A DNA stretch of 32,000 bases from Candidatus Iainarchaeum sp. (GCA_028710695.1 JAQTTP010000006.1:22635-54634), one strand, 5' to 3'. Numbered from the stretch's first letter, positions 15,641 to 32,000 are shown. Numbers and translations are program-made. The notes: generated from the sequence alone by a model not told the origin.

Positions 15641-15705
15641 ATAGATTATAGCAATTACCTATATAAATATATTCCTATAAATAGGATATATAATAACTAT
15701 TTATG
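15641..15705. promoter_or_regulatory. Divergent A/T-rich promoter region
   Basis: CCTATATAAATATATT (15658-15673) and ACTATTTATG (15696-15705, 28 nt before the rpl15e ATG) lie in the 106-nt divergent gap. Confidence 0.4.
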
Positions 15706-15723
15706 AATTAAGAGTGTGATAGC

Positions 15724-16323: not shown

Positions 16324-16350
16324 AGCTTTTTCTTTTTTCTATTTTTTTAT

Positions 16351-17193: not shown

Positions 17194-17248
17194 ATAAGAA
17201 ATAATAACTTTACTAAAGAATAAAAGCTTTCGGGTTGTTAGTTTTATT

Positions 17249-17803: not shown

Positions 17804-17823
17804 ATTTCTGAATTGGTGATACT

Positions 17824-18162
17824 ATGAAGAGAAAATTGAATCCCTTGCCATTGTCTTTGAGAGAAAAGAAAAGATATCTTTTATTTTCTATGAATAAAGT
17901 AGAAAATTTTGAAAACATAATTAATAGTTATGTGCGGTCTTTTTTTGGAACTTATTTTATGGCACAAATGGAATTCAGGATTTTGAAGAGTAAAGAGAAA
18001 AAAAAGAGAATTTATTTTGTTGTAAAAGCATCTAGAGATGAATTTGAAAAAATAATTGCTGCTTTGGAATTATTTAAAAAATCAAATGAAATTATGTTGG
18101 ACATAAAGTTAGAAAAAGTTAGTGGAACAATAAAGACAATAAATGAAATCTTGGAGGAGTAA
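17824..18162 (+). CDS. rnp2: RNase P protein component 2 (Pop5 family)
   Basis: PLPLSLREKKRYLLF near the N-terminus and KVSGTIKTI near the C-terminus match archaeal Pop5 signatures (LPPTLRxKxRYIxF ... VSGTIK). Confidence 0.85.
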   Translation: MKRKLNPLPLSLREKKRYLLFSMNKVENFENIINSYVRSFFGTYFMAQMEFRILKSKEKKKRIYFVVKASRDEFEKIIAALELFKKSNEIMLDIKLEKVSGTIKTINEILEE

Positions 18163-18163
18163 A

Positions 18164-18958: not shown

Positions 18959-19515
18959 TTCTTTTGCAGAAAAAACAAAACATTTTTGAGAAGGTAAGGC
19001 ACTATGCACATAACAAAGGCAAAAATAAAAAGTCATTAACTATTTTTTCAAAGATATTTGTATTTTTAATCTCATTTTTGTTTGCATTTTTAATTCTATA
19101 TCTTATTTTTGAATACTTTAACTTATACTATTATGTTTCTTTGTTTTTTTCTTACCTAGTTTACAATTTTTTCAGTTCGAGCTTTCAAAATATTACAATG
19201 ATTGGAACAACAGTAGACTTTTCTACTTTCCAAATTAATATAACTGATGTTTGTTCTGGAGCTTATGAATTAATTGTATTTATTTCTTTGATATTTGCTT
19301 GCTTTGAAATTAAGTTGTGGAAAAGGGCAGTAGGAATTTTAACATACCTTCTGGTGTTTGTAATTTTTAATTTGGTAAGAATGATAATAGTAATTTATTC
19401 TCTGGGGATTTTTGATTTGATGTCAGTAGATATCTTACACACAGTTTTATTCAAATTTGGATTTTGGATATTTACATTATTGTTCTTTGTATACTTTTTG
19501 ATTTTTGCAGAATAA
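18955..19515 (+). CDS. Minimal (186-aa) exosortase/archaeosortase-family transpeptidase
   Basis: Polytopic membrane protein with INITDVCSGAYELIVF (Cys100, tgt 19252-19254), FNLVRMIIV (the N-x-x-R motif, Arg142, aga 19378-19380) and DILHTVLFKFG (His162, cac 19438-19440). These are the Cys/Arg/His triad context of the exosortase/archaeosortase family. The GTG start overlaps the patatin stop (GTGA). Confidence 0.72.
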   Translation: MILLQKKQNIFEKVRHYAHNKGKNKKSLTIFSKIFVFLISFLFAFLILYLIFEYFNLYYYVSLFFSYLVYNFFSSSFQNITMIGTTVDFSTFQINITDVCSGAYELIVFISLIFACFEIKLWKRAVGILTYLLVFVIFNLVRMIIVIYSLGIFDLMSVDILHTVLFKFGFWIFTLLFFVYFLIFAE

Positions 19516-19632
19516 ATCTATAAGAGCCAAATTTCTGTACACTATCTTTAAGCGGAATTAACAATTTGGCAAGCCCTTATCATTTTTTGTATACTTGAAA
19601 TCTGACTACTGCTGTTCTTTTCCCTATTTGCA

Positions 19633-20160
19633 TTAAGCCAACCAGATTCCTATTTGGAATACTGCAACAATTAAAACTATCTTTAGAAGTTGATATTTAT
19701 TGAAAATTAGCATAAGAAAAGTGAATAATTTTAAAGGAATTACAAAGATTGTATTTATAAGAAATAAAGGAATTTGCATAAGGAAATGTTTCTGGGCAAT
19801 ACCTTTGTAGATTGAAACTATTTTTGCGTCTACATTTTGGATATCTTTTTTACTTGGGACAGATTGGAAAATAATTGTTACTGCAAGCCACAAAATTATT
19901 ACAAAAAAATAAAACTCTGGGCGAAATTTCACTGCGTACCAAATTCCAAGTGTGGCAATTATGTTACTAAAAAGAAAAGGGGCAATAGCAATGATTATTG
20001 TTTTCCAATCGTGTACATCATGGTGTTGTACATATGATTCTTTTAATCCAAATTTTACTTTTGTTACTTTTACACCTAATAACATACAGGCAAGAAAGTG
20101 TGTGAACTCATGAATTATTACTCCTGGATAAAATAATAATTCTAAGAACATTTTTACCAC
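19633..20160 (-). CDS. Membrane-embedded HExxH protein (M50B-like/DUF3267-like putative metalloprotease)
   Basis: PGVIIHEFTHFLACMLLGVKVTKVKFG at the N-terminus, followed by 4-5 hydrophobic helices. The GTG start (or ATG 20151) abuts the bud32 stop. Confidence 0.55.
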   Translation of the reverse strand: MVKMFLELLFYPGVIIHEFTHFLACMLLGVKVTKVKFGLKESYVQHHDVHDWKTIIIAIAPFLFSNIIATLGIWYAVKFRPEFYFFVIILWLAVTIIFQSVPSKKDIQNVDAKIVSIYKGIAQKHFLMQIPLFLINTIFVIPLKLFTFLMLIFNKYQLLKIVLIVAVFQIGIWLA

Positions 20161-20736
20161 TTAGCCTTGATAACGTTTTCTTTTTTCAATTTCATTAATT
20201 TTGTTTTCTATTTCGTGCTTTGTGTTTTTTAAATATCCCTCAAGAATATAGTTCCAAGTTTTTTCTGAAAAATCAGCAAGAATTGTACCTTTTAGCACAG
20301 TTAAATCTGTTGCATAATCTTCTAATTTTGAAGAAATGCTTGAAAGTCCGAAGTCTAAAAATATTGGTCTTTTGTCTCCAAAGAAAATATTTTGTGCAGT
20401 TAGATCTCCGTGGATTATATTGTTGTTGTGGAGTTTTGCAATTTCTTTTCCAACTAAAATAAGTTTTTCTTTGTCTTTGGAATATTTTCTTAAAGGTTCT
20501 CCTTTAATGTAAGATAAATGTAAAGTGTAATTTTCCAAGTCTTCTTTTAGTACTTCTGGGCAAGCAATCCCTGCTTTTAAAACTTTTTTTAATATGCTTG
20601 CTTCTGCTTTGGTTCTTTGTTTTAAAATTTTGTCATTAAGTTTTGGGTTTCGATATTTTTTTACAATTCGTTGTTTGATAATTATGCCCTTGTCTAAGAA
20701 TACTTTTGCTTCGGCACCTTCATAAATTAGCTTCAT
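20161..20736 (-). CDS. bud32: Bud32/PRPK-type KEOPS kinase
   Basis: The protein starts MKLIYEGAEAKVF. The catalytic Lys context is IIKQRIVKKYR. Also present are LNDKILKQRTKAEASILKK, IIHGDLTAQNIFF (D-x4-N) and IFLDFGLS (DFG). The 191-aa length is typical of the minimal Bud32 kinase. Confidence 0.88.
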   Translation of the reverse strand: MKLIYEGAEAKVFLDKGIIIKQRIVKKYRNPKLNDKILKQRTKAEASILKKVLKAGIACPEVLKEDLENYTLHLSYIKGEPLRKYSKDKEKLILVGKEIAKLHNNNIIHGDLTAQNIFFGDKRPIFLDFGLSSISSKLEDYATDLTVLKGTILADFSEKTWNYILEGYLKNTKHEIENKINEIEKRKRYQG

Positions 20737-20741
20737 ACTAA

Positions 20742-21245
20742 TTAGTCAGGGCATAAAATATATAAAATGTCGTTGTGATTAATTAAGTCGTTTTCTAGGT
20801 TTTCAATAGGCTCTTGCATAAGTTCGTAATAGTTTTTTAGGTTTTCTTTATTTGCTTCTAAATCTGCCTTTAAAGCCTTTAGTTTTAGTTTTCCATTATC
20901 AGTTAGAGTTTTTAGTTGTTGTGCTTCTGTTCCACAACTAATTGTTGCCAGATTTGGTGTGTCTGCAATGTATTTCATTGTATTTTTATTAACTAAATAG
21001 TACTCCCAATATCCGGTCTCAATATCTATTGCTTTTGAGATTTCGTCACTTTTGGAACCTTGTTCTTTTAGTAAATATGCTTTATATTCATTAATTTGGG
21101 TCTCATTTGCATAGTCTGTTATGTTAAATTTTTCTCTGCTTTTTTCAATAAAATGGGCTGAATCGGCCATAAAATTTGCATAATAGAAGTATCCACCAAC
21201 AATTATGGCAATAATAATTACTAAAATAAGGATCTTTTTCCCCAT
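20742..21245 (-). CDS. N-terminally anchored hypothetical protein (167 aa)
   Basis: Start chosen at MGKKILILVIIIAIIVGGYFYYANF (cat 21243-21245). A helical ectodomain with 2 Cys follows. It lies 5 nt upstream of bud32 on the same strand. Confidence 0.6.
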   Translation of the reverse strand: MGKKILILVIIIAIIVGGYFYYANFMADSAHFIEKSREKFNITDYANETQINEYKAYLLKEQGSKSDEISKAIDIETGYWEYYLVNKNTMKYIADTPNLATISCGTEAQQLKTLTDNGKLKLKALKADLEANKENLKNYYELMQEPIENLENDLINHNDILYILCPD

Positions 21246-21366
21246 AGGACTCACTAAGAAATATATTGCGGTAGAATATATAAACATTACTATATAATAT
21301 AGTATTAAAAGACTCTAATTTTTTTAGATTCTATTTTGAATTTCAAAAAGGAGGATGGTGAGAGTC

Positions 21367-21822
21367 ATGGCAAGAATGCACTCAAAATCAAAAGGAAAAT
21401 CAGGCTCAACCAAACCCGACGTAAAAGACAAACCAGATTGGGTAAAGTTGAAGCCGAAAGAAGTAGAAGATTTAGTTGTATCATTCGCGAAGGAAGGAAT
21501 GTCACCTTCAGTAATAGGTATAACTCTAAGGGATCAATATGGAGTCCCTGCGGCAGATTTGGTTGCTGGAAAGACAATAACACAAATTTTAAAGGATAAT
21601 AAGTTGAAACCTGAGCTTCCAGAAGATCTAGGAAACCTGATTAGATCAGCAGTTAAGCTTTTGAAGCACTTAGAGCTAAACAAAAAGGATAGAACTGCAA
21701 AAAGGGGCTATCAGTTAACTGTTTCTAAGATTAGAAGATTAGCAATTTATTATAAAGGAAAGAAATTGTTGCCAATGGATTGGAAATATAGTGATGAAAA
21801 GGCAGCATTGTTGGTTAGGTGA
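21367..21822 (+). CDS. rps15: 30S ribosomal protein S15 (uS15, S13e-type)
   Basis: MARMHSKSKGKSGSTKP N-terminus, a DRTAKRGYQLTVSKIRRLAIYYK block, and GGAGG at 21350-21354. Confidence 0.92.
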   Translation: MARMHSKSKGKSGSTKPDVKDKPDWVKLKPKEVEDLVVSFAKEGMSPSVIGITLRDQYGVPAADLVAGKTITQILKDNKLKPELPEDLGNLIRSAVKLLKHLELNKKDRTAKRGYQLTVSKIRRLAIYYKGKKLLPMDWKYSDEKAALLVR

Positions 21823-21827
21823 TAGTT

Positions 21828-22421
21828 ATGGCTGCTACTAGTAAACAACAAAGAGTTGTGGTTGATAAGTGGAAGAAAAAAAAGGAATACACAATTATGG
21901 CGCCAAAATTAGTTGGTAATGTTGAAATTGGCCATACAGTATCCGATAAAGATGAAAAAGTAATTGGAAGAGTTACTAAGGCAAACTTAGGACAGCTTAC
22001 AAACCAGTTCCAGAAGAAAAAGTATGATGTTTACTTTAGAGTAAATAACGTACAAGCTTCAAATGCATATACAGAAATGTTTGCATTGGAAATGAAAGGA
22101 AACTTTTCAAGAAGACTTATTGGAAGACGATGCAATAAGTTGGATATGGTTCAATTCTTAGATACCAAAGATGGCCAGAGATTAAAAGTAAAGTCTTTGT
22201 GTGTTACAAGAAGAAAAATCGAAAAAGTAAAAGAAAGAGATATTTCCAGAGAATTAAGAAAGCAAATCGGAATGATTGTTTCAAAAAACAGTAGTGACGA
22301 TGTGTTTGACTTAGTTATGAACAAAGACGTAGAAAAAGACCTTATTTCAAAGGTAAAAAATATTGCAGAAATAAGAGGTTGTGCAATATTGCTTTTGAAG
22401 AAGGTAAACAAAAAGAAGTAG
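21828..22421 (+). CDS. rps3ae: 30S ribosomal protein S3Ae (eS1)
   Basis: VVDKWKKKKEYTIMAPKLVG... is typical of S3Ae. ATG 21828 is preceded by AGGTGAT (21817-21823), which overlaps the rps15 stop. Confidence 0.9.
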   Translation: MAATSKQQRVVVDKWKKKKEYTIMAPKLVGNVEIGHTVSDKDEKVIGRVTKANLGQLTNQFQKKKYDVYFRVNNVQASNAYTEMFALEMKGNFSRRLIGRRCNKLDMVQFLDTKDGQRLKVKSLCVTRRKIEKVKERDISRELRKQIGMIVSKNSSDDVFDLVMNKDVEKDLISKVKNIAEIRGCAILLLKKVNKKK

Positions 22422-22426
22422 TAAGT

Positions 22427-22455
22427 AAATCCCGTTTTTGGGATTTCTTTTTTTA
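22427..22455 (+). terminator. 7-bp hairpin plus T-tract after rps3ae
   Basis: AAATCCC-gttttt-GGGATTT, followed by ctttttttattt. Confidence 0.55.
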
Positions 22456-22475
22456 TTTATTTATGAGGTGGTTCT

Positions 22476-22742
22476 ATGGCTCCAGAAACTAATGAAATTG
22501 TGGATATTTTAAATATGCTGCTTTCGGACTACTCAATTCCGAGAAACATAAAAAGTGTTTTAGAAGATACAAAAAAAGTTGTTGAAGGCAAAGAACTAGA
22601 AATCGTTGCTCTTTCTGATGCGGTTTACAAGTTGCAAGATGTTTGTGAAGACATAAACTTGCCTATTTCTGTGAAACCAGATTTGTGGATGCTTTTAAGT
22701 AAACTTGAAGGCCTAAAAGAAATAAAGAAAAAGAAGAAGTAA
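22476..22742 (+). CDS. UPF0147-family small helical protein
   Basis: LLSDYSIPRNIKSVLED...DINLPISVKPDLWMLLSKLEG matches the UPF0147 pattern (D.SVPRNIR ... DPNMP...R..IW...S.LE). GAGGTGG Shine-Dalgarno at 22463-22469. Confidence 0.75.
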   Translation: MAPETNEIVDILNMLLSDYSIPRNIKSVLEDTKKVVEGKELEIVALSDAVYKLQDVCEDINLPISVKPDLWMLLSKLEGLKEIKKKKK

Positions 22743-22812
22743 ATTTTTTTATCTTATTTTTATTTATCTAATTATTCGTAATTAATATATACCTGGTTTG
22801 TCTCTTTCTATA

Positions 22813-24069
22813 ATGCATAATGGATATCTTTTGCCAAACCAATATGTTGACCAAGTAATTAATGGTAGAGATTATTGTGCTGAATTTTTGAAAGTCCCTG
22901 TTGAATTAAGGGGTGTTGTATTTCTATATCTCCCCCAAACAATCCAAAAACAAGTATTAAAGAAAATATCTGATGAAAAGCTAGTTGATTTGTTAAGATA
23001 TCCTGATCCTGATGATATTACTGATATAATTCAAGGGTTATCTTTTTTTAGACGTAAAAAAATACTTTCAGAATTAGAAGGTGGTATGGCAAAAAAAGTA
23101 GCGGACCTTTTAGCATATCCTTCTGACACAGCAATAAGATTAACAAATTTAGACTATGTATTAGTGGATTTGGGAATTAAATTTAAAGATGTTTTAAATG
23201 TTGTTGAAAAACACAAAAAGAAAACTGGAAAAGACCCGGTGGTTTTAGCTCAAAAAGATGGAATTTTTGTTGGAGAGATTCCAGTTTCAGCATTTATCCG
23301 CAGTAATCTTGATGACATCATAGATAAATATGTTGTAAAAGTGCCAACAATTTTTTATCATGAAAAACAATCAAAAATAATAAAATTATTTGAGCACAAC
23401 AAGCACAATAAGATAATTGTTTTAGATAAAGGCAAAGCAATTATCGGAATCATTTATTCTGACGATGTTTTTAGACTAATGAAAAAGCAAAGAGCAAGAG
23501 ATTTGTATGGCTTTGCAGGATTGAAGCAAGAAGAAGATATTTTTGATAAATTTTATATAAAAATAAAAAATAGAGCAACATGGCTGGTGCTTAATTTATT
23601 TACTGCTTTCCTTGCTTCTCTTGTTGTGGCATTATTTAAAGATGTGATATCTGCAGTTGTTGTTCTTGCTGCTTATATGCCTATTGTTGCGGGTATGGGC
23701 GGAAATGCGGGAACGCAGACTCTTGCTGTAACAGTTAGGGGGCTTGTTTTACATAATATAGAAAAAAGAGCTTTTTTCAGAATTTATTTTAACGAACTTT
23801 TGGCAGCATTTTTTAATGGACTGATAGTTGGTATTGTTGCAATTGTATTGGCTTATTTATTGGGGGCAAGCCTTGTCTTTAGCCTTATTGTGGCAGTATC
23901 GGTGTTATTGAATTTAATGGTTGCAGTTAGCGCAGGCTTCTTTGTACCTCTGTTTCTTAAACGCATTGGAAAAGATCCTGCAACAGGGTCAAGTGTTCTT
24001 ATTACTACTGCAACAGATGTCTGTGGATTCTTTATATTCTTGGGATTAGCAAGTATAATTTTCTTGTGA
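22813..24069 (+). CDS. mgtE: Magnesium transporter MgtE
   Basis: MPIVAGMGGNAGTQTLAVTVRGL, TM helices, a CBS-like middle region, and C-terminal DPATGSSVLITTATDVCGFFIFLG. ATG 22813 is preferred over TTG 22798 because TTAATATATA (about 22781-22792) lies roughly 25 nt upstream. The start is uncertain. Confidence 0.88.
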   Translation: MHNGYLLPNQYVDQVINGRDYCAEFLKVPVELRGVVFLYLPQTIQKQVLKKISDEKLVDLLRYPDPDDITDIIQGLSFFRRKKILSELEGGMAKKVADLLAYPSDTAIRLTNLDYVLVDLGIKFKDVLNVVEKHKKKTGKDPVVLAQKDGIFVGEIPVSAFIRSNLDDIIDKYVVKVPTIFYHEKQSKIIKLFEHNKHNKIIVLDKGKAIIGIIYSDDVFRLMKKQRARDLYGFAGLKQEEDIFDKFYIKIKNRATWLVLNLFTAFLASLVVALFKDVISAVVVLAAYMPIVAGMGGNAGTQTLAVTVRGLVLHNIEKRAFFRIYFNELLAAFFNGLIVGIVAIVLAYLLGASLVFSLIVAVSVLLNLMVAVSAGFFVPLFLKRIGKDPATGSSVLITTATDVCGFFIFLGLASIIFL

Positions 24070-24075
24070 TTTACT

Positions 24076-24828
24076 ATGTTTGGTAATTTTTTTCGTAAAA
24101 GACCAGAAATGAAGACTGCAAAAGATGTAAAAAGAATTACTTTTGCTGAAAGAGTTATTCCTGGACAAGAACACATTCCTAAGAAAGAAAGATCAACAGA
24201 ATTTATTGAATTTGGCGGGGGAGATTTTGGATCTATTGCCGTAGGAAGAGTTAAATTTAATGATGGTACAGAAAAACGAGTTGCCATAAAATTTTTTCAT
24301 AAAGACAGAGTAGTTTCTGATGCAATGGCTAAACAATATAGAGAAGTTATGGCTGACTTTAAATCTGCGGGAGTTAGAATTCCAAAAATGGATATGGTTA
24401 AACTTCCTACTGGCGAGTGGGTACAAGTTTCAGCTCTTTTTGGATCTTCAGGAAAAGGTAGTAAATTTAAATCAAATTTACAATGGTCTATATATCATGC
24501 AATTGAAGCTGGAGAAGCAGCAGTATTGAATTATTTTGAACAATGTGTTTTGATTGCAAATGCAGGCTATAAGCCTTATGTTGATGCGTTTTTTGTTAAC
24601 CCCAAAACGAAACAAGTTTATGTTGGAGATCTAGATCTTTTTGCAAGATTTGGAAAATCGTCGACAAATAATATTATTCGTGACTTATATTCACAACAAA
24701 GCCTTCTTCTGCGTGTAACTACAGTGAATAAACTTTTAGAAGTCTTTAGAAAAAGAGCGAATTTTGGGCTACGAAGACATGAAAAAAAGATATTTGGAAC
24801 ATTATTAAATGTTGTTGCAAAGAAATAA
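24076..24828 (+). CDS. Minimal atypical protein-kinase-like protein (250 aa), family not recognised
   Basis: FGGGDFGSIAVG (GxGxxG, residues 47-52), RVAIKFF (VAIK Lys72), YREVMADF (Glu90), YVDAFFVN (D170-x4-N175) and VGDLDLF (D185/D187). The spacings match the canonical ePK core. The gene starts 6 nt after the mgtE stop. Confidence 0.6.
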   Translation: MFGNFFRKRPEMKTAKDVKRITFAERVIPGQEHIPKKERSTEFIEFGGGDFGSIAVGRVKFNDGTEKRVAIKFFHKDRVVSDAMAKQYREVMADFKSAGVRIPKMDMVKLPTGEWVQVSALFGSSGKGSKFKSNLQWSIYHAIEAGEAAVLNYFEQCVLIANAGYKPYVDAFFVNPKTKQVYVGDLDLFARFGKSSTNNIIRDLYSQQSLLLRVTTVNKLLEVFRKRANFGLRRHEKKIFGTLLNVVAKK

Positions 24829-24830
24829 TT

Positions 24831-26021
24831 TTATTCTTCTTTTTGTAATTGTTTTACAAGTTTTTTAACATTCTTTGTATTGTTCATGAACCCGCCACGG
24901 AAAATAATAACCGCGAAAATTAAAACAATTAGAACTATTGCTCCAATTGTTATTGCTCTGTTTTCCATTGCGAATAAGGCAGTTGGTTTTGAGTTCAAAG
25001 ATGTGCTTGTTCCAGAGATAGGGATAACTGTATTTGTGTCATTAGTATTTTTATCTTCTGTGATTATAATCCCTGTATTTGAGTCCTTACTGTAATCTGG
25101 GCTAGTAGGATTGTTTGTAGATGTCAAATCATTGCTAGTAGGATTGTCAACATTTGATTCTGGCCCACTTGTATTGGTTTGGGTTGTCTCTATATTAGAC
25201 TCTATTTTTGGCTCGTAATTGTCTCTAAACAAAACTGCCTCTTTTCCTAAGAAGTATTCCTTGTTTGTGTGGGAATCTCTTAGGGAAACAGAAATTTCTG
25301 TATCTTTACAGAATCCTACTTCTGAATTATAATCTACTGCGAAAACAAAGCTTTTTGTTTCATTTGATGGTATGTTTGTTATCATTGGAATGTACTTTAC
25401 AACAAAGCAATTTTCATCGTTCTTGAAAACAGGGAAAAAGTCTGAATTTGCCCCTGTGTTTTTTACATTAAATATTACTTTCTCAGAAGGGTTGTTTTTT
25501 CCTATTGCTAAGGTAGTGTAATCCCAAGAAACTACTTCTAAAACAGGGGTAGAATTGTTTGTGTTTGAACTAAATGAATATTTGCCCTCTTTTTCTGTTA
25601 CTTTTACTATAATTTCTTTCTCAAAATCTGTGCTTTTGAATCCGTTATTCGCATTTAGTTTTATTAGGATTTTGTATTCCTTTGGCTCTGTGTTGCTTGG
25701 AACTTTTATGTTTATTGCCTTAGAATATGAAAAGTTTGTATTATCCATGTATGTTGGACTTGTTACTTCTAAGTCGCTTTCAAAGACATAATTTAGCTTT
25801 AACTTGTAATAAGAATCTATATCTATTCCAAGTTTAAGGATTGAAAATGAGCCTTGCTGTAAGCTTAGGTATTCTGCTTCAGGAAGGATCTCTATTGAAA
25901 AGTCTTCATTTTGTGCTTTAATTTGCTTCTCCATATCGAAAGTGGAGTAAGAATAAGAGTTTGCTATTAGTATAAAAAGTAAGATTGCCCCGATGATAAC
26001 AAAGATAACCTTTCTATCCAT
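24831..26021 (-). CDS. Type I membrane-anchored surface protein with beta-sandwich (CARDB-like) modules and an S/T/N-rich stalk
   Basis: The signal/anchor is MDRKVIFVIIGAILLFILIANS. Modules with KVIFNVKNTGANS-type strands follow. The stalk is TTQTNTSGPESNVDNPTSNDLTSTNNPTSPDYSKDSNT. The C-terminal TM AITIGAIVLIVLIFAVIIF is followed by a basic tail. Confidence 0.7.
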   Translation of the reverse strand: MDRKVIFVIIGAILLFILIANSYSYSTFDMEKQIKAQNEDFSIEILPEAEYLSLQQGSFSILKLGIDIDSYYKLKLNYVFESDLEVTSPTYMDNTNFSYSKAINIKVPSNTEPKEYKILIKLNANNGFKSTDFEKEIIVKVTEKEGKYSFSSNTNNSTPVLEVVSWDYTTLAIGKNNPSEKVIFNVKNTGANSDFFPVFKNDENCFVVKYIPMITNIPSNETKSFVFAVDYNSEVGFCKDTEISVSLRDSHTNKEYFLGKEAVLFRDNYEPKIESNIETTQTNTSGPESNVDNPTSNDLTSTNNPTSPDYSKDSNTGIIITEDKNTNDTNTVIPISGTSTSLNSKPTALFAMENRAITIGAIVLIVLIFAVIIFRGGFMNNTKNVKKLVKQLQKEE

Positions 26022-26042
26022 GTTAACTTGTTAACTCAAACA

Positions 26043-26056
26043 ATATATAAATATAT
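26043..26056 (-). promoter_or_regulatory. TATA-box-like element, about 29 nt upstream of the start at 26021 (likely leaderless)
   Basis: ATATATAAATATAT is centred about 29 nt from the ATG. No Shine-Dalgarno intervenes. Confidence 0.45.
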
Positions 26057-26109
26057 CTCTTATTACTTGAGTTTTTTGTTCAATGATGAGTGGTTTTCCA
26101 GTTAAAATT

Positions 26110-27258
26110 TTACTTAAATAATGAAACAAACCAATCAATTATTATTTGGAAAAAACCCCTATCTTCTTTTTCTTGCGGTTCTGCTTCTTCTTGCTCTGGT
26201 ATGGATGGTACGGACTTTCCTGTCATCAATGTTTCGCATTTATCTTTGCCGATGAATTCTCCGTCTATAAAACAATCTGCAGGGGGTCCATTGTCTGAAG
26301 GTTTTTCTTTACTTGTTGGTTCATTGCTGACTAGTGCTTTACAATCATCTTCGCCAATAAAATTTCCATTAATTATACATTCTTGAGGTGGTCCATCATC
26401 GGATTTATTATAATTGGGCTGGCCCTTAACTTCTGTCTGTACTTCTTTGCCTATTTTACTTTCATATTTTTGGGCATAATCAACTAAGGTTTTCAAAGAT
26501 TCCTTGGAACATCCGCCTCCGCCTTGCATCCCTGATTCTGTTACTGTTTCATTCATGTCGGGGTGAGTTTTTGTAAATTGTTCGCAATTAGTCGTATTGG
26601 TATTATAAATAGAAACTCTTTTCAGCTTTTTGAGGTTATCAAGACAGGACAAATCTCCCGTAATGTCCGGGTTTCCCGGATACTCATCTGCTATACCTAG
26701 CTCTTCAAGATTGGTTAACTTACTGAATACACAGATATCACCACTGACAAAAGTGCCGCTAACATATATTGCCTTTAAGTTTGGCATATTGGCAAAAACA
26801 GATATATCTCCGGAAATATTTGTATGTGTCATTGCAAAAGTCTCTAACTTAGTCAAATCTTTCAAGCAAGAAATATCTCCTGTTATTTTTGGGTCAAAGG
26901 CAAATTTCAAGCTTCTTAAATTTGTGGCTCCTGCTAGCGAACAGATATCACCATAAACATCAGGATTGGAATAAAGACTAAAAACATCCAGATTTACTAA
27001 ATTTTTCAAATTAGCAATATCTCCAGTAATTGTTCTGTCGGTTGCATCCATGTACTGCAAGCAAGTCAAATCCTTAAGTTGGTTTACATCTTTGAGTAGA
27101 TCTATATTATTAATTCGGATAAAATTCTCATCTTGATAAGCCATCTGGTAATCTTTATACACGGAAGTTGTAATATCTCCAGATTGGCATGGCGCAATGG
27201 CGTAAATAAAACTTACTGACAAAACTACCAATAATAAAAATAAAATTATTTTTCTCAT
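26110..27258 (-). CDS. Secreted leucine-rich-repeat protein with GDI(S/C/A)-type repeats of about 24 aa and a twin Cys-motif C-terminal region
   Basis: The signal peptide is MRKIILFLLLVVLSVSFIYAIAPC. The repeats are TGDIANLKNLVNLDVFSL.., GDICSLAGATNLRSLKFA.., GDISCLKDLTKLETFAM.., GDISVFANMPNLKAIYV.., GDICVFSKLTNLEELGI.. and GDLSCLDNLKKLKRVSI... The C-terminal motifs are DDGPPQECIINGNFIGEDDCKALV and DNGPPADCFIDGEFIGKDKCETLM. The protein ends in the hydrophobic tail RGFFQIIIDWFVSLFK. Confidence 0.8.
   Translation of the reverse strand: MRKIILFLLLVVLSVSFIYAIAPCQSGDITTSVYKDYQMAYQDENFIRINNIDLLKDVNQLKDLTCLQYMDATDRTITGDIANLKNLVNLDVFSLYSNPDVYGDICSLAGATNLRSLKFAFDPKITGDISCLKDLTKLETFAMTHTNISGDISVFANMPNLKAIYVSGTFVSGDICVFSKLTNLEELGIADEYPGNPDITGDLSCLDNLKKLKRVSIYNTNTTNCEQFTKTHPDMNETVTESGMQGGGGCSKESLKTLVDYAQKYESKIGKEVQTEVKGQPNYNKSDDGPPQECIINGNFIGEDDCKALVSNEPTSKEKPSDNGPPADCFIDGEFIGKDKCETLMTGKSVPSIPEQEEAEPQEKEDRGFFQIIIDWFVSLFK
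26593..27180 (-). repeat. Tandem LRR coding repeats (period about 72 nt)
   Basis: At least six consecutive units are seen in the translation. Each starts with GD(I/L)(A/S/C) and carries an L..L..L core. Confidence 0.7.
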
Positions 27259-27365
27259 TTAAACAACCCTATCATTAACAGGTTACATTGTATTTAAATG
27301 TTTATAAAATCTTGGCTTGTTTTTTAATCGCATATTATGTGAAATTTGGAGCTCTACATTTGAAC

Positions 27366-27380
27366 GTATAAATATATAAA
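27366..27380 (+). promoter_or_regulatory. TATA-box-like element, about 29 nt upstream of ATG 27402 (likely leaderless)
   Basis: GTATAAATATATAAA. No Shine-Dalgarno lies before the ATG. Confidence 0.45.
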
Positions 27381-27401
27381 CAATGACAACAATCCTATTT
27401 T

Positions 27402-27866
27402 ATGAACTATAAACACACTCAAATTGGTTACCTAATGCTGATTGTTACACTGGCTGTGCTGGTGCTTTTTGTATGGACTTATATTACTGCCTCTGCTGAA
27501 CCCCCCTCATACTACTCAGGCACAAATTTTGCCTTTACCGCTATAATGGTATTAATTCTGTTTATTCTTGCTTCCTTTGCGTCACTTCAAGTAATTATTG
27601 ATGAAAAATATTTACGAATCAAGTTTGGATATGGTATTTTTCGGAAAAAGTTTTTGCTTAATGAGATAAAGTCTGCTAAAACCGTAAAGAATCATTGGTG
27701 TTATGGGTGGGGAATAAGAAGGTGGTTCTGGCCCAAGATGTGGATCTACAATGTTTCCGGTTTTGATGCGGTTGAAATAAAACTGAAAAATGGTAAAACA
27801 TACAGAATAGGCACTGATGAACCTAAAAAATTAGAAGAAGCAATTCTGCATTTAATTAAACAATGA
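27402..27866 (+). CDS. Two-TM membrane protein with a small C-terminal beta-rich (PH-like?) domain
   Basis: Two helices are present: IGYLMLIVTLAVLVLFVWTYI and FAFTAIMVLILFILASFASL. They are followed by QVIIDEKYLRIKFGYGIFRKKFLLNEIKSAKTV...VEIKLKNGKTYRIGTDEPKKLEEAI. The function is not recognised with confidence. Confidence 0.6.
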   Translation: MNYKHTQIGYLMLIVTLAVLVLFVWTYITASAEPPSYYSGTNFAFTAIMVLILFILASFASLQVIIDEKYLRIKFGYGIFRKKFLLNEIKSAKTVKNHWCYGWGIRRWFWPKMWIYNVSGFDAVEIKLKNGKTYRIGTDEPKKLEEAILHLIKQ

Positions 27867-27922
27867 AGAAAAGCGGTATTCTGAACTTGAATCACGCTGT
27901 GTTTTCTTAACTCTTCTGAAAG

Positions 27923-27970
27923 TATTTATATAAATATCCTTTTTATTTTATACGTACATAATATATATAG
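27923..27970 (+). promoter_or_regulatory. Candidate promoter(s) of the giant surface gene
   Basis: Two TATA-like boxes are present: TATTTATATAAATAT (27923-27937) and ACATAATATATATAG (27956-27970). The second lies about 36 nt before ATG 27999 and would give a short leader carrying GGTGAT (27990-27995). Confidence 0.4.
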
Positions 27971-27998
27971 TCACGCACGCACGCGCTTTGGTGATTTT

Positions 27999-30900
27999 AT
28001 GGGTTTAGGCGAATTTTTTGGAAAAATAAACGAGAAAATGAATGCTGGTTTTGACAGTATTATTGCTTTTTTGGATGAAAAAGGCATTCCTGCACAAAAG
28101 TATGCTGACTTTTTGGAAGAAAAAGGAATCCCCGCAATGTGGTTTACTCTTTTAATCATCGCCTTGATTATAGCTGTAATTGTTTTACTAGTAACCGTTG
28201 TATTCGCCTCAAGTGTAACCCTAAATCTATCTATAATGACTGATGATGGAACAACCCCAAGTTCAGTATTTTTGAATATTACTGGTTTGGATGGCGAGAT
28301 TTTTTTGTCTGAGCAGGTTCAAAATGGAACGCAGGTAAAAATAAAAGGAATTGGAGTTGGAGATTCTCTGTTCTTAAATTCAAGTTTGGAAGGATATAGC
28401 TTTACCTCCCCCTCAGAACTACCTATCTCTGAAAAAGAGATGTTGGTATCTTTGATTTTTGAAAAACAAGAAAAAACTGGAAAAGTAAGTTTTAAAGTAA
28501 TTAATGGTGAAGAACAGACAACTGTGGGAAGTGCAAAGCTTTCTATTTATGATGATGATGAGTTATTGGTAGAAGGGACTACTGATGAGTATGGTGGTTT
28601 TGATGCAGTACTGCCTTTGAAAAAAGTGAACTTGACAATTGACAGAGACGGATATGAACAATATACAAAGTCAGTTGAATTACTTGAAAATAAAGATTAT
28701 ATCTTCGAGCTTAGCCCCAAAGAATTTGATTCAAGTGAAGAGGGGTCTTTTAAGTTTGTTGTAAAGGATATGACACAAAATGCTTTGAATAATGTGAAGA
28801 TTGATGTTTATAATATAAAAACCAATGCAAAGCTTGGAAGTACAAATACAAATGAAGATGGTATTGGGGTATTTTCTGCAAAGAAAGGAACATCAATAAG
28901 ATTTGTTGCGCAGAAAGACGGATTTGCAGTATTTGACTCTAATGCAGAAGGAATCTCAAGAACTTTATTGACAGACGAAGAAGTTATTTCTTTTATGATG
29001 CCTATTGGTGGCGGAAAATTAAGTGTTATTGTGGTTGACTCTTTGGGTGTTGGAATTCAAGAAGCAAAAGTTTCTTTGTATACAACAATGCTTATTGAGC
29101 AATTAACACAAAATACCGATATTGGCGGGACAACAGATTTCTCTGGATTGGATTATACAATTTTGAAATACATTTCTGTTTATAGAGAAGGGTATTATCC
29201 ACAAACAAGATTATTGGACAGTACTTCTGAAATGAAATTTGAAATGGAAAAAGTAGATTTGTCAAAAGCAGCAATAGTTGATGTGTTTGTTATTGACAAA
29301 GATAATAAGCCAGTTGGAAGTGCAACGTTAGAATTTAAGTATGATGTTAACGGTGAATTATATCCAATAGCACATCCTAATCCAATTACATCTGTTACTG
29401 GTTATTTTACTTTTAACTTAAAACCAGATATTACTTTGACTGTGTCTGCAAATACAGACGACAAGTATGGTGAAGCATCTTTATTATTGAAAGCAGGAAG
29501 AAATAGAATTGATGTAAAAATGGAAAACACAGGAAGCAAATTTACAATGTACTTATACGACAAATATGGAAAGCCATTGGCAAATGCACATGTAATGCTT
29601 TTTGATAAACAAGGAAATTTAGTTTATGATGGATACACTGATGCAATGGGCAGAATTGAAGCAGACGCATTAGGAAACAAAGAATTGGATATGTTTGTTA
29701 CTGATGAAAATGGAAATACATACTCACAAACAATAAATCCAAAAGATAAAATGCAAATAAAACTGGATGATAATAAAAATAAAGACAAGTTATTTGTTTC
29801 TTTGTCTAAGGTAACTGACTTAGAAGGTAAAGAAGTCAGTGCTATGCAAAAAGGAAAAACTTATTTATTGGTATTTAATTTGTTTTGGCCAGAGGGGTTA
29901 TACTCTGGTGGGCTGCACATAAGATTGGGTTCAGATAGTGAAAAATATGTTGCAAATCAAGATGTGGGAATTATTGGATTTGATGGTGTTGCAGACAATT
30001 TCAAATATGGAATTAGTTATTCTCCATTACCTTTGCCAGGGGATTATTCAGTAGATTATTATTCTACTGGTGTTGCAGGGCAGTTTAACAAATGGTTAGA
30101 ATTATATTTCACAAATCCATCTGGAAATAGCAATTTGAAAGTAAGAGTAAAATCCAAAGCAACAACAGATCTGAACTCTATGGAAATAAGATACAGGGCT
30201 TGGACACAAGATACTAATGATGGCTTTACAAGAAACCCAGTAGACTCTATGTTGGGTACAAAAGAAAATATTACAACAAAATATAGTTTGTATGCAGACA
30301 CCTACCTAAAAGAACTTCAATTAATGGATGGGTCCTTGAATTGTGAAAATGATGTTTGTGTATCATATACAATTTTAGATGATCAATTTACTTATGATAT
30401 TGCAAAGTTCAATGGTGTGTTAGATTATTATTATGCCTTAGATTTAGAATTAACATCTATTATTGAACAACAAGTTTCTTTGTCTGTTCAGACAGAAGAT
30501 GATCCAAAACTTTATTTGAATAATTATTCTGAAAATATAACTGAGTTTTCTCCAAAAGATGAAAAAAATACAAAGCAAAATGTTCCAGTTGATATGTCTT
30601 CAATGGAGAAAAAGAAAGTAAGATTTTATTTCAACCCTTTCAAAGAAGGGCTTACAAATATTGTTGTGAAAACAATTACAACAAAAGGAGTAATTGAGAA
30701 AAATATTCCTGTAAATATTTTCCCTAAAAAAGAAATGGAAGTAATTTTGAATGCAGATTTTATCCCTCTTGGCGAAGACTTCCCAATAATAGTTAAGGAA
30801 AAAGGCGGAAATTATTTAACGAATGCAAAAATTACAATATTAAATAAAAAAACAAATAAGAATGCAATGTTTGTTGAAGGTACTGGCAAAGTTGACTTTG

Positions 30901-32000
30901 GAAAAGACGGAAGATATTTAATAAAAAATACTTTGGCTAGTGGATTTTACCTAGTTTCAGTTAGTGTGCCTGGATACTTACCAACTGAATTAGAAATTTT
31001 GGTTGGAAATGTAGGTGCATTATTTGTTAAAAGCGATAATGAATTGGTAATTCCAAAAAACACAAAACAAGGAACTGTAAAGATTGCAGTTCAAAATAAA
31101 ACAAAAATGCCAGTTGAGTCAATGTCAGTAAATATCGTTAGTTCAAGCTTGAGTCCAAACTTTGGGATAAGTGCAAAAATGGTTACTGGATTTATTGCAG
31201 CAAATGGAACTTCGGAATTAATGGTAATGGGTTCTTATAACGGCGAAGAAGAAAGAGAAAATGGTGTTGTAGAACTAGAAATTGTTGGAGTTCAAAATAA
31301 GAATGAAATTACAAAAATAAAAACAAAAGTATTTGTTTATTATAATAAAGAAATAAAGAACACAAGCTGTTTGTGGGCAAGTAAAGAGGCATTAATTTAT
31401 AGTTTGCCTGCTGTGCAAAATTCAAAAATTGAAGATAGTATTCTATTTAGAAATAATTGTGAGTTTGATTTGAAAGTAACTCCTCAAATGATATCTGATG
31501 ACTTATCAAATTACGGTTTGCAATTGAACTTGCAAGGATTTGATTTGAAAAAAGGAGAAGAGAAATCAATAAAATTCACATTAGTAAATTTAACTCCAAT
31601 AGCAATGGCAGATGAAACAAAAGTATTGTCATTGTATTTAGTAACGGATTATTTTACAAAGAATATTCCAATGAATGTTACAATTTGGAATGCTGCAAGT
31701 TCATTATCAATAATTACTGCTGGGCACGTATTTATTTCTGCGTTTAAAGAAATGCAAGGGCAATATGTTCCAGTAATTGTACAAAATAATGGAAGATTGC
31801 CAATATACAATATCCAAGTAATGGCATCTAATAATAGGTATCAAATGCAATCATATAATTATGGTGCTAATAATTATGGTTCAAACTTTTTGAATAGTTA
31901 TAGTCAGTTAAATAACAACAGATATAACCAGCAAGGTTATAATTCACAAGTAAATAATTATGGTGTTGATGCATATACTTACAATCCTTTATCTAATGGC
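27999..32000 (+). CDS. Giant N-terminally anchored surface protein with tandem CarboxypepD_reg/PEGA-like and CARDB-like modules and a Q/N/Y-rich tract; 3'-truncated by the window edge (more than 1,334 codons)
   Basis: This ORF is not in the supplied ORF track. My manual translation from ATG 27999 (GGTGAT RBS 4 nt upstream; in-frame TGA at 27888-27890) found no stop through base 32000. I re-checked the frame at 29040, 30000, 31020 and 31860. The product begins MGLGEFFGKINEKMNAGFDSIIAFLDEKGIPAQKYADFLEEKGIPA, followed by the TM MWFTLLIIALIIAVIVLLVTVVFA. Six modules of about 87 aa follow (e.g. GKVSFKVINGEEQTTVGSAKLSIYDDDELLVEGTTDEYGGFDAVLPLKKVNLTIDRDGY; SKFTMYLYDKYGKPLANAHVMLFDKQGNLVYDGYTDAMGRIEA). 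Later come CARDB-like strands (GTVKIAVQNKTKMPVESMSVNIV; QYVPVIVQNNGRLPIYNIQV). Confidence 0.85.
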   Translation, partial: MGLGEFFGKINEKMNAGFDSIIAFLDEKGIPAQKYADFLEEKGIPAMWFTLLIIALIIAVIVLLVTVVFASSVTLNLSIMTDDGTTPSSVFLNITGLDGEIFLSEQVQNGTQVKIKGIGVGDSLFLNSSLEGYSFTSPSELPISEKEMLVSLIFEKQEKTGKVSFKVINGEEQTTVGSAKLSIYDDDELLVEGTTDEYGGFDAVLPLKKVNLTIDRDGYEQYTKSVELLENKDYIFELSPKEFDSSEEGSFKFVVKDMTQNALNNVKIDVYNIKTNAKLGSTNTNEDGIGVFSAKKGTSIRFVAQKDGFAVFDSNAEGISRTLLTDEEVISFMMPIGGGKLSVIVVDSLGVGIQEAKVSLYTTMLIEQLTQNTDIGGTTDFSGLDYTILKYISVYREGYYPQTRLLDSTSEMKFEMEKVDLSKAAIVDVFVIDKDNKPVGSATLEFKYDVNGELYPIAHPNPITSVTGYFTFNLKPDITLTVSANTDDKYGEASLLLKAGRNRIDVKMENTGSKFTMYLYDKYGKPLANAHVMLFDKQGNLVYDGYTDAMGRIEADALGNKELDMFVTDENGNTYSQTINPKDKMQIKLDDNKNKDKLFVSLSKVTDLEGKEVSAMQKGKTYLLVFNLFWPEGLYSGGLHIRLGSDSEKYVANQDVGIIGFDGVADNFKYGISYSPLPLPGDYSVDYYSTGVAGQFNKWLELYFTNPSGNSNLKVRVKSKATTDLNSMEIRYRAWTQDTNDGFTRNPVDSMLGTKENITTKYSLYADTYLKELQLMDGSLNCENDVCVSYTILDDQFTYDIAKFNGVLDYYYALDLELTSIIEQQVSLSVQTEDDPKLYLNNYSENITEFSPKDEKNTKQNVPVDMSSMEKKKVRFYFNPFKEGLTNIVVKTITTKGVIEKNIPVNIFPKKEMEVILNADFIPLGEDFPIIVKEKGGNYLTNAKITILNKKTNKNAMFVEGTGKVDFGKDGRYLIKNTLASGFYLVSVSVPGYLPTELEILVGNVGALFVKSDNELVIPKNTKQGTVKIAVQNKTKMPVESMSVNIVSSSLSPNFGISAKMVTGFIAANGTSELMVMGSYNGEEERENGVVELEIVGVQNKNEITKIKTKVFVYYNKEIKNTSCLWASKEALIYSLPAVQNSKIEDSILFRNNCEFDLKVTPQMISDDLSNYGLQLNLQGFDLKKGEEKSIKFTLVNLTPIAMADETKVLSLYLVTDYFTKNIPMNVTIWNAASSLSIITAGHVFISAFKEMQGQYVPVIVQNNGRLPIYNIQVMASNNRYQMQSYNYGANNYGSNFLNSYSQLNNNRYNQQGYNSQVNNYGVDAYTYNPLSNG
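28209..29770 (+). repeat. Six tandem beta-sandwich-domain coding repeats of about 87 aa inside the giant gene
   Basis: A recurrent pattern is seen in the translation. It is h-x-h-x-V-x-D, then G-x-P-(L/V)-x-x-A-x-V-x-L, then T-(D/N)-x-x-G, a hydrophobic strand, and finally (D/E)-G-Y. The repeats are protein-level only; the DNA has diverged. Confidence 0.65.

Follow-up and report, generated by a model that had tools for sequence, protein, structure and literature searches.

The plus-strand open reading frame (ORF) at the 3′ end of a 32,000-nucleotide stretch of DNA (the window) from Candidatus Iainarchaeum sp., a DPANN archaeon that, as previously supposed, has a small genome, is, judged from sequence, the N-terminal part of a conserved family of colinear giant proteins built from a short head, a transmembrane (TM) helix, and a beta-sandwich stalk. 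On balance, we favor the reading that the protein serves as a tethered stalk that offers peptidoglycan-degrading enzymes to bacteria, with the enzymatic tip extrapolated from relatives.

Retranslation of positions 27999 to 32000 yielded 1,334 codons and zero stops, in agreement with the sequence-only reading, which had described a giant open plus-strand frame from the ATG at 27999. Neither an in-frame stop nor a frameshift was seen upon re-inspection. The remaining five frames contained 46 to 137 stops over the same interval, and approximately 118 stops would be expected in the 27999 frame from base composition (P of an open frame, ∼2 × 10−54). The last in-frame stop 5′ of the gene ends at 27890, with no start codon between it and ATG 27999. 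Upstream, an AT-rich region on the plus strand (27924 to 27969), read from the sequence as a candidate archaeal promoter, contains two TATA-like boxes (tttatataaata, 27924 to 27935; aatatatata, 27960 to 27969). The hexamer GGTGAT that had been pointed out upstream of the start lies at 27990 to 27995 (plus strand), separated from the ATG by 3 nucleotides (TTT); just nine copies occur on the plus strand in 32 kb, several of them directly 5′ of starts (17815 and 10404). This Shine-Dalgarno-like hexamer is complementary to the archaeal 16S 3′ end.

The contig, part of a metagenome-assembled genome, is 54,634 bp long and its end, which coincides with that of the window, cuts the gene, leaving an open-ended coding sequence (27999 to 32000, plus strand) that would represent the N-terminal ∼39 to 40% of a giant surface protein. 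GenBank already has the gene as a partial coding sequence of exactly 1,334 amino acids (aa) (MDD4983898.1, Candidatus Iainarchaeum sp., [quoted passage not shown]). The frame is indeed absent from the ORF listing, in which the only ORFs of at least 60 aa in this region are on the minus strand (27971 to 28159, 29092 to 29274, and 30059 to 30301); however, the listing leaves out ORFs that run off the end of the source, and the absence is therefore not biological. Likewise, the suggestion that this is the largest gene in the window would hold at full length but not for the portion present, since the gene at 10365 to 14747 encodes 1,460 aa.

Comparison with a relative (L001) independently indicates that the frame is a real coding gene, because the two align gaplessly (84.6% nucleotide identity), with differences distributed 37/19/110 over the three codon positions and a dN/dS of 0.086. 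In L001, codon 71 is an in-frame TAA; the dN/dS value of 0.086 holds on both sides of this position. By these substitution patterns, we conclude that the gene is under strong purifying selection.

The predicted protein begins with an acidic, conserved head (aa 1 to 46; 27999 to 28136, plus strand) that bears a duplicated FL[DE]EKGIPA motif at aa 24 to 46. G29, P31, G43, and P45 were invariant in a 40-sequence alignment, and 106 of 149 family representatives had the strict double KGIP-type motif, in 100 of them at a fixed span; the representatives outside this count were fragments or N-for-G variants. The head matched no Pfam family. It is followed by one TM helix (aa 47 to 70; 28137 to 28208, plus strand), a putative signal anchor, which was identified by hydropathy scan and is present in every N-terminally intact family member. 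The Kyte-Doolittle 19-residue average peaked at 3.6 here and reached at most 1.6 in all other segments, and the only above-threshold region was aa ∼41 to 81. The proposed arrangement of an approximately 46-aa head and a single N-terminal helix thus stands, with no second segment in the available sequence. An orientation with the N terminus inside the cell is plausible because the domains that follow are of exported type; the charge bias across 138 family members is weak (mean K+R of 1.3 before versus 0.8 after the helix), and the net charge of the head is −2.9.

Beyond the helix, six tandem beta-sandwich modules resembling CarboxypepD_reg (M1 to M6; 28215 to 29786, plus strand) were recovered with Pfam and hhalign at aa 73 to 160, 161 to 248, 249 to 338, 339 to 424, 425 to 513, and 514 to 596. 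The whole protein matched CarboxypepD_reg (PF13620) in four stretches at 78.4 bits (E = 5.2 × 10−22), above the curated gathering threshold of 32.3 bits. Searched singly against PF13620, M2, M3, M5, and M6 matched (9 × 10−5 to 6 × 10−3), and M1 and M4 did not. In hhalign comparisons of family subalignments, however, pairs among all six modules, M1 and M4 included, were joined at 84 to 98% probability, with the exception of M2-M5 (51%). The six modules of about 87 aa of CarboxypepD_reg or PEGA-like type described previously are therefore borne out by profile matches, which reveal detectable beta-sandwich domains in the repeat units. A seventh such module had not been described (M7, aa 916 to 1007; 30744 to 31019, plus strand); it contains the top Pfam stretch of the whole protein (aa 932 to 1000), matches PF13620 alone at 1.6 × 10−5, and is related to M1 to M6 at 77 to 97% hhalign probability. 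Self-BLAST of the protein gave no match at E < 0.01, suggesting that the modules are ancient and divergent.

Between M6 and M7 lies a family-specific all-beta core (aa 597 to 915; 29787 to 30743, plus strand), defined by alignment and AlphaFold modeling. This distinct and highly conserved region was overlooked in the sequence-only reading. Invariant columns are packed most densely here (F626, R642, G644, D686, R733, P747, C782, and C787), and the region carries the motifs GGxH(V/I)RxGxD, NKWxELYF, and YRAW and the pair Cys782/Cys787 and had no Pfam match. Its AlphaFold model (pLDDT 88.7) was all-beta, and the best Foldseek matches were tandem Ig-like adhesin stalks (AgI/II C-domains, PrgB, and integrin alpha legs), although TM-scores of just 0.24 to 0.31 at 8 to 10% identity mark these as generic fold matches.

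M7 is followed by two Ig-like beta-sandwiches of a second type (aa 1008 to 1120 and 1121 to 1240; 31020 to 31718, plus strand), with conserved Cys1124/Cys1154. They were related to each other (hhalign, 89%), and hhalign detected no relation of either to M1 to M7. This region had been assigned to CARDB/NEW3-like modules, an identity that is not supported for aa ∼1005 to 1334. Residues 1005 to 1122 matched no Pfam family at E ≤ 1, CARDB (PF07705) and NEW3 (PF10633) included, and aa 1119 to 1334 gave only a weak match to DUF1548 (0.022). The AlphaFold model of aa 1005 to 1290 (pLDDT 82.3) comprised two seven-strand sandwiches nearest to ASH/PapD-like Ig tandems by Foldseek; the top 50 PDB matches included ASH-domain ciliary proteins, CEP192 SPD-2, PapD-like chaperones, and 2qsv, and no CARDB entry was among them. 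Only a generic Ig-like sandwich fold is confirmed here. The contig stops inside an N/Q/Y-rich low-complexity linker (aa ∼1280 to 1334; 31836 to 32000, plus strand), and no DNA tandem repeat was found at the contig end.

An exhaustive HMMER search returned 301 matches, 116 of them, counted as cluster representatives, at E ≤ 1 × 10−30. The best matches aligned as a single stretch from residue 1 to ∼1197 (E down to 1 × 10−179) and were 2,700 to 2,950 aa long; the median full length of the family is 2,782 aa, and full-length members are expected at about 2,400 to 3,500 aa. The window protein fits this family, with the double-KGIP head, the TM helix, and a colinear single-stretch alignment through the core. 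All named members belong to Diapherotrites/Iainarchaeota, save a few labeled Micrarchaeota or simply “archaeon.” The ortholog P0153 (3,457 aa) is 67% identical over aa 1 to 1285, with 2 gapped sites among 1,286 alignment columns, and has an S/N/Q-rich linker at the place where the contig stops, followed by further domains. Judged from this ortholog, the full-length gene would encode about 3,400 aa. P0153 is also syntenic with the window gene: the flanking genes at 18955 to 24069 and 24831 to 26021 of the window match positions 31 to 9801 of L002 in the same order, MgtE included.

Pfam detected no SLT domain in the 1,334 aa of the window protein. At the C-terminal end of P0153, SLT (PF01464, aa 2892 to 2950; 1.2 × 10−12) and Lipase_GDSL_2 (1.1 × 10−12) were found, with the SLT motifs ES (catalytic, ∼2914), GLGQ, and AYNMG and the GDSL blocks I and III intact. 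SLT was present in all five scanned complete relatives of the same subclade: P0153, P0004 and P0007 (each with GDSL), P0003 (with DUF2272), and P0012. The subclade profile matches MltC in the PDB and lytic-transglycosylase models in NCBIfam. More distantly, P0013 carries NlpC/P60, Amidase_3, and glucosaminidase domains, and P0020 carries SLT. Gly-rich hydrophobic segments and a long coiled-coil region lie ahead of the tip in relatives, some of which match Pfam SdrD_B and SpaA. In the wider family, few proteins have a recognizable hydrolase tip (8 of 115 long proteins using phmmer seeds; 2 of 17 distant members using Pfam), an observation that runs against an enzymatic tip. The C-terminal block common to distant members has no detectable likeness to SLT (hhalign probability, 1%), so what the scaffold conserves may be a function other than attack on peptidoglycan.

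The label “adhesin-like” given in the sequence-only reading fits the stalk but is incomplete, in that the ortholog and nearest subclade end in SLT plus SGNH/GDSL or DUF2272; because of these SLT tips, the protein is probably an enzyme-tipped stalk rather than a plain adhesin. In the proposed mechanism, the TM helix would serve as an uncleaved signal anchor that leaves the head cytoplasmic while the remainder is exported, and the beta-sandwich array would form a long stalk reaching out from the cell. The distal end, beyond the contig, would carry a family-1 lytic transglycosylase (SLT) and an SGNH/GDSL esterase, as in P0153 and the nearest subclade. The tip would then touch a neighboring bacterium and cut its peptidoglycan locally, while the esterase might either attack lipids or strip the O-acetyl groups by which lytic transglycosylases are blocked. 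The archaeon could in this way attach, reach the bacterial membrane, or scavenge. Counting against this reading, a free-living lifestyle has been argued for Iainarchaeota in work cited in PMC10936187.

A purely structural role appears rather unlikely, even though the majority of the family lacks a recognizable hydrolase domain. In this view, the protein, as an S-layer-like sheath, spacer, or adhesin, would shape the archaeon’s own surface or bind surfaces and archaeal partners, and hydrolases would be late additions in a few branches that say little about this gene. Every domain visible in the window belongs to the beta-sandwich stalk, the structural matches were adhesin stalks and integrin legs, and the gene is conserved and syntenic beside housekeeping operons, which would suit a core gene of the envelope. 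Against this, SLT occurs in each of the scanned complete subclade relatives, and its catalytic motifs are intact in an ortholog at 67% identity. Moreover, three kinds of hydrolase were recruited independently to one tip position, which points to peptidoglycan as a recurring target for the scaffold.

Peptidoglycan-hydrolase tips would equally suit an antibacterial weapon that kills competing bacteria, or an enzyme that obtains amino sugars and amino acids by digesting cell-wall debris, in either case with no stable cell-cell association. The literature discusses scavenging of peptidoglycan from dead cells and “vampiristic” or predatory use by DPANN (PMC9723730 and PMC11537232) and regards Iainarchaeota as comparatively self-sufficient (PMC10936187). 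We nevertheless consider this explanation unlikely, given that a tethered stalk of >3,000 aa is costly for a scavenging enzyme when plain secretion would do, and that the Gly-rich segments and coiled coil preceding the tip in relatives suggest a contact-dependent device. Finally, a decaying pseudogene or an assembly artifact (a chimeric or broken frame), to which the contig end and the L001 stop might point, is effectively refuted, for the part of the gene present, by the stop-free frame, its colinearity with >100 homologues, the dN/dS on either side of that stop, and the near-gapless alignment to a complete ortholog.

The enzyme-tipped stalk could be extended into a broader and unlikely scheme, in which a contact-dependent “bacteriolytic spear” with a KGIP head, a ∼2,000-aa stalk, and swappable hydrolases is conserved across Iainarchaeota and neighbors. 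The invariant cytoplasmic head would perhaps be a docking site for a cytoplasmic partner, and the distal module would join a long coiled coil to membrane-active Gly-rich segments and exchangeable cargo (SLT plus SGNH, SLT plus DUF2272, or NlpC/P60 plus amidase plus glucosaminidase). If true, a DPANN lineage usually regarded as possibly free-living would physically engage and breach bacteria across the domain boundary, and the scaffold would be an archaeal counterpart of polymorphic effector-delivery systems.

Several known systems share parts of this architecture. Gram-positive adhesins (AgI/II family, PrgB, SdrD, and SpaA-type) are likewise beta-sandwich arrays that project a functional end outward, a likeness that is generic (TM-score, ∼0.3); they are anchored to peptidoglycan by a C-terminal LPXTG sortase signal and have cleaved N-terminal signal peptides, whereas the window protein has an N-terminal TM anchor and a conserved head predicted to be cytoplasmic. 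The SPEARE proteins of Nanohaloarchaeota, reportedly described by Hamm and colleagues in 2019, are said to be giant multidomain surface proteins proposed for host contact. By analogy of description only, they resemble the present family in being giant proteins of the DPANN surface, in joining enzymatic domains to adhesion-type repeats, and in being proposed to breach the envelope of a host, but they carry protease and nuclease domains instead of peptidoglycan hydrolases and have an archaeal host. The P0153 tip matches MltC in NCBIfam as well as in the PDB and keeps the ES, GLxQ, and AYNxG motifs of bacterial membrane-bound lytic transglycosylases (SLT PF01464; MltC and EmtA). Those are periplasmic bacterial housekeeping enzymes of ∼200 to 700 aa, whereas SLT makes up ∼4% of the 3,457-aa archaeal surface protein; as an archaeon, the organism is not expected to make peptidoglycan.

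A close parallel is with the giant murein transglycosylases of DPANN. Large murein-transglycosylase proteins (fam00969) were described in 2021 as specific to Woesearchaeota/Pacearchaeota (PMC8204110), with first notice credited, in that paper, to Rinke 2013 and Castelle 2015, and a “large lytic murein transglycosylase” of GH23 was noted in Woesearchaeota (PMC9723730). Like the ortholog and its subclade, these proteins are giant (up to ∼3,000 aa), predicted to be extracellular, and from small-genome DPANN, with a bacterial-type SLT/GH23 domain read as binding and degrading the bacterial cell wall. By description, the two differ in their lineages, as the present family belongs to Diapherotrites/Iainarchaeota. 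As far as we found, no earlier work describes the conserved KGIP head, a colinear scaffold of ∼1,900 aa, an SGNH partner domain, or the exchange of tip enzymes. We conclude that the gene is most likely a further case of the giant cell-wall-cutting protein type already reported in DPANN.

Translation of the + strand frame from 27999 to 32000, which had been singled out as open from the sequence alone, gave 1,334 codons with zero stops, compared to 46 to 137 stops in the remaining five frames of the same stretch. From base composition, a random frame would be expected to contain ~118 stops, corresponding to a probability of an open frame of ~2e-54. The last in-frame stop before the gene ends at 27890, and the first start thereafter is the ATG at 27999. 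The GGTGAT motif reported upstream was found at 27990 to 27995, three bases 5' of this ATG; the motif is scarce (9 + strand copies in the window) and also occurs ahead of starts at 17815 and 10404. Two TATA-like boxes (27924 to 27935 and 27960 to 27969) and a GC-rich run, cacgcacgcacgcgc (27974 to 27988), lie 5' of GGTGAT, the latter directly adjacent to it within AT-rich DNA. The upstream sequence of L001, a short related ENA contig, is unlike the window's 27924 to 27988 region.

The sequence-only reading had also described the gene as missing from the ORF track. Only three minus-strand ORFs of at least 60 aa are indeed given there for this stretch; however, the giant ORF is absent because the ORF tool leaves out ORFs running off the source, and the gene was annotated already. 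The window protein is identical to GenBank MDD4983898.1 (1,334 aa, partial; singleton cluster), titled 'MAG: carboxypeptidase-like regulatory domain-containing protein, partial [Candidatus (I)ainarchaeum sp.]' and encoded on a 54,634-bp contig whose end is the window end. Candidatus Iainarchaeum belongs to the Iainarchaeota (formerly Diapherotrites), a DPANN phylum. The gene neighborhood, which includes CDC48, CysRS, and MgtE at a GC content of about 32%, fits a small AT-rich archaeon. No complete ORF in the window is longer than a second giant one on the + strand (10365 to 14747; 1,460 aa). Translation of this ORF probably begins at an ATG near 10413, just past the GGTGAT at 10404; the product starts with a hydrophobic signal or anchor and carries a C-terminal TM helix. 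Exact-sequence look-ups with the upstream neighbor of the giant gene and with the window protein itself returned no contig by which the sequence could be extended. A Pfam search with this ORF returned no match; it probably encodes another large surface protein.

The 1,334 aa encoded in the window begin with an acidic head (aa 1 to 46; 27999 to 28136, +) containing a duplicated FL[DE]EKGIPA motif, followed by the sole strongly hydrophobic segment, the TM helix predicted earlier (aa 47 to 70; 28137 to 28208, +). Six CarboxypepD_reg modules of ~87 aa (M1 to M6) occupy aa 73 to 596. Pfam CarboxypepD_reg matched the whole protein (78 bits, E = 5e-22), with individual matches for modules 2, 3, 5, and 6 and none for modules 1 and 4, and self-BLAST of the window protein returned no internal repeats at E<0.01. 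Profile-profile comparison of family sub-alignments, in contrast, interlinked M1 to M6 and a seventh CarboxypepD_reg-like module (aa 916 to 1007, +) at 77 to 98% probability (M2-M5, 51%). The repeats are therefore detectable at the profile level only, and the description of six tandem modules is correct.

Between M6 and the seventh module lies the best-conserved part of the family (aa 597 to 915, +), a core for which a Pfam search returned no match. Its invariant or near-invariant residues include H640, R642, G644, D646, D686, R733, P747, C782, and C787. An AlphaFold model of the core (10-sequence alignment; pLDDT 88.7, pTM 0.74) was all-beta, and its Foldseek matches in the PDB were Ig-like tandem stalks of adhesins (AgI/II C-domains, PrgB), integrin alpha legs, and transglutaminase barrels, with no enzymatic fold among them. 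Given TM-scores of 0.24 to 0.31, this likeness is to multi-sandwich proteins generically. The region that follows (aa 1008 to 1240, +) was modeled as two seven-strand, Ig-like sandwiches (pLDDT 82), the best structural matches being ASH/PapD-like tandems (ciliary central-pair proteins, CEP192 SPD-2, pilus chaperones, and 2qsv). The proposed CARDB/NEW3 label did not hold, since this region had no Pfam CARDB or NEW3 match and no CARDB entry among its top 50 structure matches; the Ig-like sandwich architecture itself is supported by the model. For the N-terminal modules, the anatomy originally proposed is largely right. An N/Q/Y-rich linker starts at aa ~1280 (+), and the contig ends inside it; no DNA tandem repeat was found at the contig end. 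A PDB sequence search with the window protein gave no match at E<=1. We infer that the beta-sandwich modules form a long stalk, and the part of the gene visible in the window is this stalk alone.

When the whole protein served as query, the word-indexed homologue search recovered nothing but that protein, because it scores just the 8,000 candidates with the most words in common with the query; an exhaustive HMMER search was therefore needed and recovered 301 relatives (116 at E<=1e-30). For the best of these, a single alignment runs from residue 1 to ~1197; they are 2,700 to 2,950 aa long, extending up to 4,511 aa (family median full length, 2,782 aa). Colinear conservation spans about 1,900 residues, including several Cys pairs, beyond which the sequences diverge. 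Members with a named source come from 'Candidatus Diapherotrites archaeon', 'archaeon', or, for the most distant, 'Candidatus Micrarchaeota archaeon', and from no others. Four bacterial profile-search matches (P0155, P0162, P0163, and P0166) were rejected as family members: they have only CarboxypepD_reg repeats in common with the query, at 7 to 12% coverage, and no head. A scan of genome contigs of species representatives with the pattern [HK]GIP[AP][MV]W[FA][NTS] yielded five relatives; the window's own MAG fits the pattern but is not among the representatives scanned. In several independent MAGs (those of the window, L005, P0006, and P0169) the giant gene runs into a contig end, and public annotated lengths are therefore often too short.

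All N-terminally intact members have a head with the approximate consensus Y.k.Edk[fy]Y..lD[fw]L..KGIPvY...d.lE..[GN]IP.FP, then one TM helix. Among 106 strict matches to the double KGIP-type motif, 100 have the same spacing, and G29, P31, G43, and P45 are invariant in essentially every N-terminally intact member. Neither Pfam nor NCBIfam models matched the head. Such conservation is surprising for a short putative cytoplasmic stub. The TM helix would act as a signal anchor that stays uncleaved and leaves the head intracellular; given the weak charge bias, the argument for this orientation comes from the exported-type domains. Class III (prepilin-type) signal cleavage between KG and IPA was set aside as improbable from the motif's sequence context: the motif occurs twice, and no hydrophobic segment follows the first copy. 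An invariant Pro at +2 and a 42-aa acidic preceding region also appear to disfavor such cleavage; known archaeal pilin signals are unlike the head in both respects.

A complete syntenic ortholog (P0153, 3,457 aa, encoded on locus L002) is 67% identical to the window protein over aa 1 to 1285, and from its length the window covers about 39% of the gene. Seven consecutive upstream genes, MgtE, and a divergent minus-strand gene are in common order at L002 and in the window. Three window genes next to the giant one lack an equivalent at L002 (24076 to 24828, +; 26110 to 27258, −; 27402 to 27866, +), one of them encoding a leucine-rich-repeat protein (LRR_4/LRR_14) with a signal-like N terminus; the three appear to have been inserted locally and may have surface or interaction roles. 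At L002 the giant gene (10001 to 20374) is followed immediately 3', on the same strand, by an rpoH-rpoB-rpoA-L7Ae-S12-S7 operon (20656 to 29723), and this operon is therefore expected just past the window's contig end.

Past the point where the window stops, P0153 continues with more beta modules and then a Cys-rich region. A T/P/E/G linker precedes an A/E/K-rich, coiled-coil-like region (aa ~2300 to 2700). The ortholog ends in a lytic transglycosylase (SLT) domain (aa 2892 to 2950; E = 1.2e-12) and a GDSL/SGNH hydrolase domain (aa 3133 to 3288; E = 1.1e-12). None of the SLT motifs (ES, GLGQ, and AYNMG) is disrupted, GDSL blocks I and III are likewise intact, and the subclade profile matches MltC (PDB) and lytic-transglycosylase models (NCBIfam). 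The closest solved chains to the SGNH domain are generic SGNH/GDSL hydrolases, which do not discriminate a lipase from a peptidoglycan O-acetylesterase. P0153 also contains Gly-rich, moderately hydrophobic segments (aa 2072 to 2119 and 2779 to 2803; Kyte-Doolittle 1.3 to 1.6); in full-length relatives, such segments lie on both sides of the coiled-coil-like region, shortly ahead of the enzymatic tip, and could be membrane-active elements. Many family members have a hydrophobic segment around residue ~2100.

SLT is consistently present in the window protein's own subclade: the next-closest complete relatives carry DUF2272 and SLT (P0003), SLT and GDSL (P0004 and P0007), or SLT (P0012). Farther out, ends with NlpC/P60, Amidase_3, and glucosaminidase (P0013) or SLT (P0020) were found, so that several different bacterial-type peptidoglycan hydrolases sit at the same distal position of a conserved scaffold. 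Recognizable hydrolases are nevertheless a minority across the family, being found in 8 of 115 long proteins with phmmer seeds and, by Pfam, in 2 of 17 distant members, compared to CarboxypepD_reg in 17 of 17. These counts, like the adhesin-type stalks matched by the core, would suit a purely structural or adhesive envelope protein, a possibility that we consider real but distinctly the less likely one; the original adhesin description is incomplete, because intact peptidoglycan-cutting enzymes are found at the ends of the nearest complete relatives. Many distant members have a common unannotated C-terminal block whose first motif ('...PEALL.A[IV]...') resembles and aligns to SLT motif I. An ancestrally SLT-tipped family was rejected, as hhalign compared the block to SLT at 1% probability (E = 0.05); given this nonsignificant result, we make no claim of SLT tips family-wide.

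The best reading of the window protein is a truncated new member, from Iainarchaeota, of the giant DPANN surface proteins with peptidoglycan hydrolases. It builds on the head, TM helix, beta-sandwich array, family colinearity, and enzyme-tipped orthologs. Because the window shows the stalk only, we infer the functionally telling part from relatives: the distal end of the gene would carry SLT and SGNH domains, as in P0153. The target would be the peptidoglycan of a neighboring bacterium, since murein synthesis is not expected in such archaea. As a peptidoglycan O-acetylesterase, the SGNH domain could remove a block to lytic transglycosylases, a combination for which bacterial Ape-type esterases are the precedent; alternatively, it may be a lipase. 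An antibacterial or scavenging enzyme working without stable contact would account for the same hydrolase tips; a long membrane-tethered stalk would be a costly means of delivering it, and it seems improbable to us.

A pseudogene or assembly artifact, for which the one in-frame stop in L001 might speak, is effectively excluded. This 1,134-bp contig aligns gap-free to window 27991 to 29066 (84.6% nucleotide and 86% amino acid identity), with differences by codon position of 37/19/110 and a dN/dS of 0.086. The giant ORF is thus a real gene under purifying selection. At L001 position 250, an in-frame TAA at codon 71, just past the TM helix, replaces the window's TCA (28209 to 28211), so that the gene is called there as two pieces of 75 and 283 aa. 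Possible explanations are an error in the sequence of this short contig, a nonsense mutation of recent date, and read-through; dN/dS is similarly low on either side (0.066 and 0.088; ~0.09 downstream), which argues for a recent lesion or short-contig error.

Genomes are still the main source for how DPANN archaea find and exploit partners, and for whether any of them use bacteria instead of archaea; a giant surface gene that is conserved and syntenic in Iainarchaeota is relevant to this question. Iainarchaeota are cited as possibly free-living (PMC10936187), yet the closest complete relatives of the window protein have intact peptidoglycan-cutting enzymes at their ends, which provides a testable handle. 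The invariant putative cytoplasmic head and exchangeable tips could help annotate hundreds of 'hypothetical' giant ORFs, and these features merit a wider survey. In our literature search, neither the KGIP head nor the colinear scaffold nor exchangeable tips were found described, and no report of such proteins in Iainarchaeota came up. Castelle et al. called a giant DPANN family specific to Woesearchaeota and Pacearchaeota, with earlier mentions in three genomes, and interpreted it as attaching to or degrading bacterial walls (PMC8204110); Vigneron et al. (2022) and others made the same statement for these two lineages. It is with this large murein transglycosylase family (fam00969), by its published description only, that the Iainarchaeota family is set side by side.
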